Part shown: piece by piece, positions 24,917 through 27,146 of the stretch
How the letters are laid out: each line of letters begins with the position of its first letter
Position numbering within the stretch: position 1 is the first letter of the stretch
DNA from: a virus
Virus record (IMG/VR): IMGVR_UViG_3300005613_000203
Span: 1 to 36,427 of that record
Reading direction: 5' to 3' (one strand)
DNA: 36,427 nt
Position numbers and translations under genes: made by a program
Notes under the pieces: model-generated
What the model was told of the DNA's origin: nothing
The model's database searches: none
The model's input: the letters and a program-made list of their open reading frames with translations, nothing else

Positions 24917-25510
24917 TTAAGCTAATGTACAACGTAAGTTCATGATCCAAAGGTCATTCGTAATACGAGGGACCTCTGCAAACTTGTAGCCAACAGATGC
25001 ATTAAGTGCTAATGGGCCACTAAATACTGGTGGTAGATAAATGAAGCTTGCTGATGCACCATCTTGTTCGATACATGCATATGCTTCCATACCGACGCAG
25101 AAGATATTATAAACAGTCTTATTCAATAAAGATGCATTATCAGTCTTCGAACCAATTGATGACACGAGGAAACGAAGGTTTCCAATTGCGCCCCACTCAG
25201 AACGTAACGCGTTCATTGGTGATGGATACTGATTCTTTTGAATGAAACCAGCAACATTATCCAAATCTTTCGTTAAATCTGTATGAGCTAATGCAAAATA
25301 TGCATCACGAACCGGTGCGGTACCAAACTTATCTTCACCTTCGATGTTATCCATGATTGTATAGGCATCATTACCCAACAATGCACGAACAACTTCATCG
25401 CAATCATTGCGAGTCAATTCTGTTGGACTGTCGCCGTTGACACCGCCACTTGCATTAATGAAGCCAGCAGTTGCAGCTAACATATCACGTGTTAGTTGGT
25501 CTTCTGTTTG
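24917..25510 (-). CDS. Major capsid protein, exon 3 (197 aa + stop)
   Basis: QTEDQLTRDMLAATAGF...VRDAYFALAHTDLTKDL...NLRFLVSS...VYNIFCVGMEAYACIE... has an HK97-fold major capsid protein C-terminal pattern. The frame is closed by TAA 9 nt upstream of 25510. Confidence 0.75.
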   Translation of the reverse strand, partial: QTEDQLTRDMLAATAGFINASGGVNGDSPTELTRNDCDEVVRALLGNDAYTIMDNIEGEDKFGTAPVRDAYFALAHTDLTKDLDNVAGFIQKNQYPSPMNALRSEWGAIGNLRFLVSSIGSKTDNASLLNKTVYNIFCVGMEAYACIEQDGASASFIYLPPVFSGPLALNASVGYKFAEVPRITNDLWIMNLRCTLA

Positions 25511-25710
25511 CCTTTGTTACTCCCTTACGGGGGGCAAGTCATTTCTGCTTGCCTCAGAACCTTTCGTTGTTCTGACCGGACTATCACATCACCTTTTACA
25601 GTGTCTTCGGGTTTAGTCTCTCACGCTAGCTTTACCCTTGCGCCTTGTCGCCATAGCAAATGCCTTAGGCTTCCAAGTCAATTACCGAAGATTTATACTC
25701 CGCCAAATCA
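25511..25710 (-). ncRNA. Group I intron 2 (200 nt, no ORF)
   Basis: P1 pairs exon CUCCGU with GCGGAG (U.G at the splice site) and the intron ends in G. P3 is UCUUCGG/CCGAAGA. R-like GAGAGACUAAAC pairs with S-like AUAGUCC (P7). Has a CCUAAGGC-AUUU-GCUAUGG 11-nt receptor hairpin and a C-GAAA-G loop. Confidence 0.7.
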
Positions 25711-25752
25711 ACGGAGTGACACACCTAATCTCGCTGCAGCTTCATTGAGAAC
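25711..25752 (-). CDS. Major capsid protein, exon 2 (42-nt micro-exon, VLNEAAARLGVSLR)
   Basis: In frame with both flanking exons after the predicted splicing. DP-VL.E....LG continues the capsid-family pattern. Confidence 0.65.
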
Positions 25753-25995
25753 CATTCTGTTACTTTTGTGACCTATTTCTAGGCGGGTAGATCTTCTCAG
25801 CCTACCTCTCCAGGTTTCCTCTGGAGTTCAGAGTACCGCATACCTTGTTTTCAAGGCCCTTCTCGCTTACTACGTTCACCGTATATTTTTCTGGCATAAT
25901 CATCCTTTGAAAAATACTTCGGCCCTGTCGCCCTCAGCACTACCTGTTAGGGGTTCCAAGTCAATCAGAGAAGGTTTATAGACCCCATTCCTTCT
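25753..25995 (-). ncRNA. Group I intron 1 (243 nt, no ORF)
   Basis: P1 pairs exon GACCCU with GGGGUC (U.G at the splice site) and the intron ends in G. P3 is CCUUCUC/GAGAAGG. P8 is CCUUG-AAAA-CAAGG. P7 is AGUA/UACU plus G-C across a bulge. Has a CCUA-GAAA-UAGG hairpin and shares AUUGACUUGGAA with intron 2. Confidence 0.65.
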
Positions 25996-26307
25996 AGGGT
26001 CTTGATTTTGGAGAACTACTTGTTCATTTAATATTACGTGAGTTCCATACCAAGAGATCTTCGCATCTATGTCGACAGCGGATAGTTGTTGAGCAGGAGG
26101 TGTTACTCCTGTATTTCCTAAAGGCACCATTGCGGTGTCTAAGGAATTGTATCTTCTCATGCGCAACGTGTTACCACCATTACGGGGCATACGTTTTTTC
26201 ATTGCAGGTATTTTCATGATCATATTTGGTGTAGGTACACTCAAAAGTTTGTATGAAAACGACTGCTGAACGGGCGCCGGAAGAGACGTTGTTGTAGTGA
26301 TAGGCAT
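25996..26307 (-). CDS. Major capsid protein, exon 1 (104 aa)
   Basis: ...FSYKLLSVPTPNMIM...NGGNTLRMRRYNSLDTAMVPLGNTGVTPP...SWYGTHVILNEQVVLQNQDP has a capsid N-terminal pattern. The remaining 31 codons of the track ORF are intron read-through. Confidence 0.75.
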
Positions 26308-26495: not shown

Positions 26496-27146
26496 ATGAT
26501 AGGCAAGAAGTTTGGAAAATGGGAAGTTTTAGGTGAAGTAAAAATTGGCAAACCAGGAAAGCAGTACGAGTGTATGTGCGAGTGTGGAAATATTTCTGTA
26601 AAAAGTGGAACCGAGTTAAGGAAGGGAAGGGGCACGCAATGCCGAGAGTGCATGTATGCCACATTATACGATCCACAAAAAGAGATTGGTAAAAAATATG
26701 GGAAATGGACAATTATTAGGTTTATTGAGGTAAGAAGGAAGTTAATGCATTATGAAACCGAGTGTGAATGTGGACGTCGTTCTATACATGCGGCAGCTGA
26801 TCTAAGGTCCGGAAAATCAATTCAGTGTATTTATTGCCACAATAGACAAAACGCTCTTAAAAACACGAAGCATGGCATGCATACCAGTCCTATTTATCGC
26901 ATATGGCAGGCTATGGTACAGAGGTGCACTAACTCTAATGCTACTCACTATTATCGGTATGGTGGGCGCGGAATAAAGGTGTGTGATCGCTGGAGGGAAT
27001 CTTTTGAAAATTTCTATAAAGATATGGGCGATCGACCTGATGGTATGACAATTGATCGCATAGACAACAATGGTAATTACGAGCCAGCTAATTGTAGATG
27101 GATAACCCATAAAGAGAACTGTAGAAATCGTTATTATAAAAAATAA
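26496..27146 (+). CDS. Free-standing HNH-family homing endonuclease (opposite strand)
   Basis: Two N-terminal GKK[FY]GKW...ECxCECG...QCxxC modules. Followed by HG...YRIWQAMVQRC...YGGRGIKVCDRW..FENFYKDMG.RP.G.TIDRIDNNGNYEP.NCRW, a widespread phage endonuclease signature. Confidence 0.7.
   Translation: MIGKKFGKWEVLGEVKIGKPGKQYECMCECGNISVKSGTELRKGRGTQCRECMYATLYDPQKEIGKKYGKWTIIRFIEVRRKLMHYETECECGRRSIHAAADLRSGKSIQCIYCHNRQNALKNTKHGMHTSPIYRIWQAMVQRCTNSNATHYYRYGGRGIKVCDRWRESFENFYKDMGDRPDGMTIDRIDNNGNYEPANCRWITHKENCRNRYYKK

Follow-up and report, generated by a model that had tools for sequence, protein, structure and literature searches.

Two candidate group I introns in a phage capsid gene: probable distant and mosaic members of one compact family

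The window, meaning the whole stretch of DNA that was analysed (36,427 nt), is an IMG/VR phage genome of 36.4 kb, complete and bounded by direct terminal repeats. On its minus strand, three open stretches match a single family of major head proteins, and the 485 nt that lie between exon 1 and exon 3 are closed in all frames (Table 1). Joined together, the three exons encode a capsid protein of 315 amino acids, from a gene of 948 nt. Exon 3 shares 79-86% amino-acid identity with its counterparts in 80 related IMG/VR loci, which are the best 80 of more than 590, ranked by an unbroken match to exon 3 and thus a sample biased against genes with introns further downstream. When the gene is compared by blastn to 50,697 phage records there is no match, and a tblastn comparison with the same records yields capsid genes only, at 26-30% identity. 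On the opposite strand, 188 nt upstream of the capsid gene, is a free-standing HNH endonuclease gene, itself giving no match in a Pfam search.

Other phages tell where the exons end. In the 35 relatives whose capsid gene is free of introns (among 79 genes scored), exactly 42 nt separate the homologues of exon 1 and exon 3, and a protein-to-DNA spliced alignment places the window exons at amino acids 1-104, 105-118, and 119-315 of an intron-free reference. The intron-free alleles alone confine the boundaries of the window introns to within 0-3 nt, and the final positions were set by requiring that each intron be preceded by U and terminate in G and that the reading frame be preserved. The spans that an earlier, sequence-only reading had given to the two introns, 25995..25753 and 25710..25511 on the minus strand, are borne out by the spliced alignment and the splice rules taken together. 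The micro-exon between the introns serves both of them. At its start, 5 nt pair with intron 1 to make P10; at its end, the 7 nt ACTCCGT serve intron 2 as the 5' strand of P1; and the nucleotides put to these two uses do not overlap.

Table 1. Positions of features in the window (plain numbers) and in related loci (numbers preceded by the name of the locus).
Feature	Coordinates	Strand	Details
HNH endonuclease gene	26496-27146	+	phrog_374, E = 1.8e-65
Capsid exon 1	25996..26307	-	104 aa; phrog_1357 major head protein, profile positions 23-126; colinear with intron-free homologues
5' strand of intron 1 P1	26002-25996	-	AGACCCT, final 7 nt of exon 1
Intron 1	25753..25995	-	243 nt, no ORF, group I, CDS site 312
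Intron 1 P10 strand	25991-25987	-	5 bp
Intron 1 guide	25986-25980	-	GGGGTCT, P1 pairing
Intron 1 P3	25974-25968 with 25864-25858	-	
Intron 1 P4	25960-25957 with 25927-25924	-	
Intron 1 P6	25923-25916 with 25884-25878	-	bears hairpin extension
Intron 1 P7	25875-25869 with 25834-25830	-	
Intron 1 P8	25857-25854 with 25845-25842	-	
Intron 1 P9	25826-25821 with 25813-25808	-	
Intron 1 P9.1	25806-25802 with 25790-25786	-	
Intron 1 P9.2	25783-25780 with 25775-25772	-	
Intron 1 terminal G	25753	-	
Micro-exon	25711..25752	-	42 nt, VLNEAAARLGVSLR
Intron 2	25511..25710	-	200 nt, no ORF, group I, CDS site 354
Intron 2 P10 strand	25707-25704	-	4 bp
Intron 2 guide	25703-25697	-	GCGGAGT, P1 pairing
Intron 2 P3	25691-25685 with 25610-25604	-	
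Intron 2 P4	25677-25674 with 25647-25644	-	
Intron 2 P6	25643-25636 with 25629-25623	-	
Intron 2 P7	25620-25615 with 25582-25578	-	
Intron 2 P8	25603-25600 with 25593-25590	-	
Intron 2 P9	25574-25569 with 25560-25555	-	
Intron 2 P9.1	25553-25549 with 25537-25533	-	
Intron 2 P9.2	25531-25529 with 25524-25522	-	CCC/GGG, read directly from the sequence
Intron 2 terminal G	25511	-	
Capsid exon 3	24917..25510	-	197 aa + stop; phrog_1357 profile positions 146-308
LAGLIDADG genes antisense to their intron (examples)	L032:1876-2379, L002:1107-2063, L029:3269-3847	-	
LAGLIDADG genes in sense orientation	L025:2764-3819, L046:2639-3886, L031:1405-1974		
Long ORF opposite a LAGLIDADG gene (example)	L002:1110-2192	+	no Pfam match
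Family copy upstream of the capsid start codon (3325)	L054:2853-3150		
Mini-inserts	L029:3101-3128, L037:2537-2570, L040:2148-2185, L043:3159-3192, L059:3103-3131		
Mini-inserts	L062:3622-3659, L065:2704-2739, L070:3079-3111, L073:1224-1251, L076:2660-2696		also in L108, L128, L152, L164, L174

The capsid genes of the relatives are interrupted often and in many places. The 79 scored genes contain 64 inserts or introns, 196-1421 nt in length, at 15 sites, and all of them match one HMM. The set comprises 56 distinct introns. Of these, 24 distinct short ones align from end to end, and the longer members have a large insertion in the loop of either P6 or P1. Capsid genes with zero, one, or both of the introns found in the window were sought among the relatives, and every class is present: 35 genes have no intron anywhere, 17 have an intron at site 312 without one at site 354, one (L012) has the reverse, and two (the window and L077) have both. 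Sites 312 and 354 are occupied independently. All the target sites of the family are rich in G+C just before the final U.

A single gene in this set may carry as many as four introns, and an additional locus, L152, carries five full introns plus one of the small inserts described below. Loci outside the top 80 (L108, L128, L152, L164, and L174) have further introns after amino acids 70, 144/146, 221, and 269. Since these loci add sites, the number of positions in the capsid gene used by the family is nearer 19-20. The introns after amino acids 144/146, 221, and 269 also dispose of the notion that all sites fall within the first 354 nt of the gene, and no 5' clustering of sites is claimed here, because the main set was ranked by an unbroken match to exon 3.

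Within the related loci, the family model matches almost nothing besides the capsid gene. One copy, in L054, lies upstream of the start codon. Its guide, GGGGTC, is of the site-312 type, and it is preceded by ATACCCT, which resembles AGACCCT, the 5' exon of site 312; the usual 3' tail of the family is not seen in this copy. This copy could represent an ectopic insertion into the leader, and one that has perhaps decayed.

What are these elements? Rfam RF00028 gives no match to anything in the window and seven related loci (L008, L012, L025, L030, L037, L046, and L073), either at its gathering score or at E <= 10, and the same model scores introns of T4 and Twort at up to 105 bits. The identification as group I therefore rests on structure. 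All 24 of 24 introns examined, at 12 sites, form a P1 of 6-8 bp with their own 5' exon, with U.G as the first pair, and all end in G. The guides in the window match their own exons, as had been read from the sequence: each pairs with the last 7 nt of its 5' exon in a P1 of 7 bp beginning with U.G. P10 averages 3.9 bp over the family, compared to 3.35 +/- 0.15 bp when exons are swapped, and none of 1000 swaps gives so high a value.

Then there is the evidence from covariation. Left unguided, RNAalifold predicts P3, P4, P5, P6, P8, P9, P9.1, and P9.2 from the alignment of 24 introns, with compensatory changes in 31 of the 38 pairs. If P7 is added as a pseudoknot, 96.8% of cells pair, versus 40-44% when the partners are slid by one to three columns. 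Changes on both sides are found in 34 of 43 pairs, and the observed values were reached in none of 500 shuffles. P7 is 100% paired, with three covarying pairs, and P4 is simply conserved, covariation never being seen there. Within P7, the pair G214-C259 is invariant and column 213 beside it is unpaired, an arrangement that may, after the Tetrahymena model, be the G-binding site.

A covariance model built from the core of the capsid intron family (model R1) gives scores of 100.5 bits to intron 1 and 127.8 bits to intron 2, both of which are among the sequences that went into it. In the 131-kb genome of Twort, R1 finds four matches (E from 3.9e-6 to 6e-3), all four of them also matches of RF00028 and three of them the tandem introns at 16.6-17.5 kb. 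In T4 it finds only a match with E = 0.22, at a position that has no intron.

The family is compact. It lacks P2, with only 5-6 nt (AUAAA, for example) between P1 and P3, and P8 begins directly after P3' (columns 230/231). Subgroup IA2, the type of T4 and Twort, is reported by Michel & Westhof (1990) to have P2 as well as the extra helices P7.1/P7.2 between P3' and P8. Understood in this way, IA2 does not accommodate the capsid introns, which have no P2, because P8 follows P3' directly. Neither window intron contains an ORF for an endonuclease, and their antisense ORFs, of 91 and 69 amino acids, have no match in Pfam. Judged by their predicted fold, both window elements are ORF-less group I introns, presumably capable of splicing themselves.

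How closely are the two related to each other? The sequence-only reading had taken them to be paralogues, the product of spread within the gene, and had pointed to several shared motifs. A global alignment of the pair scores 136.5, compared to 85.2 +/- 7.2 for 500 dinucleotide shuffles (z = 7.1), and a local alignment gives z = 7.5, so that in the comparison set beforehand as a possible refutation of kinship the similarity stands well above the shuffled controls. The lead-in TATAAA(C/T)CTTC, the 12-mer ATTGACTTGGAA, CGACA(A/G)GG, and ATG.G are indeed present in both introns, and the 3' tails agree only roughly (AGTAACAGAATG vs AGTAACAAAGG). The 12-mer is identical in the two, but it is not as a whole a strand of P4, as had been thought: only CUUG pairs, with CA(A/G)G, and the rest belongs to J3/4 and J4/5. 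P7 does show the swap of C-G for G-C, at columns 217/257. The P3 helices are each self-complementary and do show compensation, but to call them entirely different went too far. Comparing CCTTCTC/GAGAAGG (intron 1) to TCTTCGG/CCGAAGA (intron 2), four of seven pairs are the same, with CTTC/GAAG in common, and three differ with compensation.

Most of the motifs cited for the kinship of the pair are widespread in the family. The ATG.G block is found in 54 of the 56 distinct introns, at 15 sites, the tail AGTAA(C/T)A in 53 of 56, at 14 sites, and ATTGACTTGGAA in 28 of 56, at 9 sites. Two are of narrower distribution: CGACA(A/G)GG occurs in 12 of 56 introns, at three sites (290, 312, and 354), and TATAAA(C/T)CTTC in 6 of 56, at just two sites (312 and 354).

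The core of intron 1 is nearest to site-312 introns of other phages (72-80% identity) and that of intron 2 to the two other site-354 introns, those of L012 and L077 (83%). The cores of the window pair are 58-60% identical, and introns at different sites in different genomes are on average 61% identical. Each ranks low among the relatives of the other, 43rd-45th and 31st-32nd of 54. A maximum-likelihood tree of the whole core, built without the guide region, assigns intron 2 to a clade of site-354 introns that also takes in one site-30 intron (support 100/97) and puts intron 1 together with introns of sites 312, 81, 93, and 26 (support 99/97). Sisterhood of the window pair, a hypothesis stated in advance, is rejected by the AU test over the whole core (lnL difference of 91, p = 0.0002).

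Recombination between introns violates the assumption of a single tree, and because the introns are mosaics the analysis was repeated by halves, the 5' half (J1/3 to P6) coming to just 75 columns and the 3' half (P7 to the end) to 124. In the 3' half, sisterhood of the window pair is again rejected (AU p = 0.0005). In the 5' half it is not (AU p = 0.23), and there three site-354 introns and eight site-312 introns, including those of the window, form one clade (support 95/83). This clade of 11 introns was defined after the 5'-half tree had been seen and then tested on different columns, those of the 3' half, where it is rejected (p = 4.5e-5). Even there the two window introns share no more than 69% identity and rank 13th and 24th of 54 for each other in the 5' half, and the clade rests largely on a common P5 module, which is present also in the site-93 intron of L008, and on the block GGCGACA. 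The pattern suggests an old exchange of 5' domains between lineages resident at the neighbouring sites 312 and 354. It is a weak echo, at the level of lineages, of the idea of spread within the gene. The earlier claim of paralogy thus survives in part: the introns are homologous and the family moves between sites, but the claim that one window intron seeded the other in this genome fails, with the pair's identity at background and an AU p of 0.0002. They are not each other's nearest relatives, and as sister paralogues born of a duplication within the gene they are rejected over both the whole core and the 3' half.

For the family at large, spread between sites of the capsid gene is real on the evidence of the trees. 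The site labels change 18-21 times on the intron trees, where the minimum is 14. The site-81 intron of L068 and the site-312 intron of L081 are sisters with support of 100/96, and close pairs occur within a single genome, at sites 290 and 312 of L073 (79%) and sites 26 and 81 of L008 (77%). The mode of this movement I can only infer. Across sites, the relatedness of introns is uncorrelated with the similarity of the hexamers in their 5' exons (r = 0.01, permutation p = 0.44), a result that speaks neither for nor against reverse splicing. Since the link between relatedness and target similarity is absent, reverse splicing gains no positive support.

I propose that the window introns are genuine ORF-less group I introns of one compact, P2-less family that escapes Rfam, that they are distant and mosaic paralogues, each corresponding to the introns that other phages have at the same site, and that each arrived or was kept separately from the other. 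The link between their 5' halves would be the trace of an old exchange between neighbours, not of a duplication within this genome. I consider this account probable. A very different view, that the inserts stay in the RNA and the capsid gene is either a pseudogene or expressed as separate pieces, can appeal to the silence of RF00028. It is too much to believe, though, of a genome that is complete with terminal repeats, with exons that are conserved and colinear with intron-free genes, RNA helices that covary, and junctions that obey the group I rules at 12 different sites, and I give it next to no credence. Equally hard to credit is the view that these are two unrelated group I introns, alike only through the general constraints on a core. 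The common blocks do sit in core elements (J3/4-P4, J8/7, and P7), which are conserved in group I introns generally. Such constraints would not explain why the pair can be aligned over its full length with 54 more introns of the gene, among which identity grades continuously over 50-85% and the helices keep the same order and lengths, nor a z of 7 against shuffles, nor why R1 scores the introns of Twort and T4 far lower.

A more serious alternative is that, in an ancestor, reverse splicing or ectopic homing carried the intron of site 312 (or 354) to the neighbouring site, 42 nt distant, and that recombination later replaced the 3' half of one copy. This would account for the 5'-half clade (95/83), within which sisterhood of the pair stands at p = 0.23, and for the confinement of TATAAA(C/T)CTTC to sites 312 and 354 and of CGACA(A/G)GG to these and site 290. 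The sites are close together, and elsewhere too a genome can have a close pair of introns, such as the 79% pair at sites 290 and 312 in L073. Against it, sisterhood is rejected over the whole core and the 3' half, and the window pair, at 69%, is far from closest (13th and 24th of 54) even where the resemblance is best. L012 has the site-354 intron without the site-312 intron, the supporting clade is drawn from 75 columns and largely from one P5 module that L008 has at site 93 too, and relatedness does not follow the similarity of target hexamers (p = 0.44). On balance I find ancestral seeding improbable, though much less so than the two views discussed above, and favour separate arrival or retention.

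After transcription each intron would fold into a ribozyme made up of P1, P10, P4-P6, P9-P9.2, and P3-P8 with P7 as a pseudoknot. It would then excise itself from the late transcript by two G-dependent transesterifications, leaving the three exons joined to encode the 315-aa capsid protein. Most likely the two reached the genome, or stayed in it, independently, whether through descent or through homing and co-conversion in which co-infecting relatives were the donors. The window introns cannot home by themselves, because they have no endonuclease gene. Help may be near at hand. Long members of the family carry genes for LAGLIDADG endonucleases, of a size fitting a single motif (about 160-190 aa) or a double motif (about 310-415 aa), situated either in the P6 loop, where they are often antisense to the intron, or in the P1 loop, in sense orientation, and such versions exist at site 312 and at neighbouring sites. 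Long ORFs without a Pfam match overlap LAGLIDADG genes on the opposite strand. During co-infection, ORF-less introns could ride on the repair of double-strand breaks begun by LAGLIDADG relatives at site 312 or nearby. The HNH gene next to the capsid gene in the window might, at a guess, act likewise; its protein has no similarity to the LAGLIDADG proteins encoded by the introns.

A smaller kind of insert is seen in 17 of the relatives, though not in the window: 28-38 nt that break the frame after amino acid 88 of the capsid protein. Each comprises a P1-like hairpin in which the exon end takes part (UACGGU with GCCGUA, U.G at the junction), a 3-nt linker, a strand of 8-12 nt that pairs with exon sequence, and a short tail with a final G. 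All the carriers possess a full intron further downstream. The exon partner of the 8-12-nt strand stops, in 11 of the 13 distinct versions, precisely 9 nt short of the 5' splice site at which the next full intron starts, and this spacing is kept whether that intron follows amino acid 97, 105, or 117. In two examples the fold of lowest energy contains both helices. A scan of viral contigs for the pattern gave mostly chance matches, capsid genes accounting for 9 of 80 among the loci listed. Translational bypass is an unlikely explanation, because there is no landing triplet to match the GGU take-off codon. An apparent 40-nt insert after amino acid 112 in L174 is an artefact of the spliced aligner.

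The mini-insert looks like a mini-intron without a core, one that would be tethered to the substrate helix of its neighbour and borrow the neighbour's ribozyme. From fungal rDNA, small and degenerate group I introns (56-81 nt) have been described in which there is pairing with the 3' exon (PMC3160393). One may go further and imagine that the family still moves by transposition at the level of RNA from one position in the capsid gene to another, needing only 4-7 nt of complementarity to the guide, that the 5' and 3' domains of the ribozymes are shuffled between neighbours, and that the family is perhaps the source of the 28-38-nt mini-introns (P1 hairpin, tether helix, terminal G), excised by the ribozyme of the next intron downstream. 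This is a speculation, and I would sooner bet against it than for it.

This capsid gene is a much richer natural case in which to pursue the question of how group I introns arrive at new sites: at least 15 sites in a gene of 948 nt, versions with and without LAGLIDADG genes, switches between sites, and the shuffling of domains, all in hundreds of sampled phage genomes. There is a caution here as well. Common core motifs in two introns of the same genome do not show that one seeded the other; populations must be sampled. And because both Rfam and annotation by ORFs miss the introns, capsid genes such as these are annotated as fragments.

Few of the individual features are without precedent. In the description given in PMC10136302 of the work of Landthaler & Shub (1999), orf142 of phage Twort has three group I introns in one late gene, the second and third (subgroup IA2) 'highly similar' and separated by a short exon, with exon skipping. 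Like orf142 as described there, the capsid gene of the window is a late gene in which several ORF-less group I introns follow one another closely, with very short exons between them and with kinship between at least two of the introns. The three orf142 introns are the tandem ones that model R1 finds in Twort. By the same description the two cases part where similarity is concerned: the window pair is about 58-60% identical and mosaic, not 'highly similar'. They part too in architecture, the family of the window lacking P2 and having P8 directly after P3', and in visibility, since RF00028 gives the Twort introns 64-101 bits and the window introns nothing. Here, moreover, many phages share one family that occupies at least 15 sites within a single gene. 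Group I introns in capsid genes are known from Lactococcus phage Tuc2009 and mycobacteriophage LittleE, where splicing was demonstrated by RT-PCR and N-terminal sequencing (PMC3706429). There as here, a very highly expressed major capsid gene is interrupted, a U precedes the intron and a G ends it, and some of the introns have an endonuclease gene. Those, however, are single introns at one site, whereas the window gene has two, its relatives have up to four or five, and the alternative sites are many. In fungal nuclear rDNA, related group I introns at different sites have been read as the result of spread by reverse splicing (PMC1299323; reviewed in PMC3984707). The likeness is in one lineage at several positions of one gene, with guides adapted to each site, and it is circumstantial evidence for ectopic transposition. 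The difference is that the host here is a protein-coding gene of phages, not rRNA, and that versions bearing endonucleases coexist with those that do not. What sets the capsid introns apart from all of these is the scale at which a single family is at work and its invisibility to Rfam.
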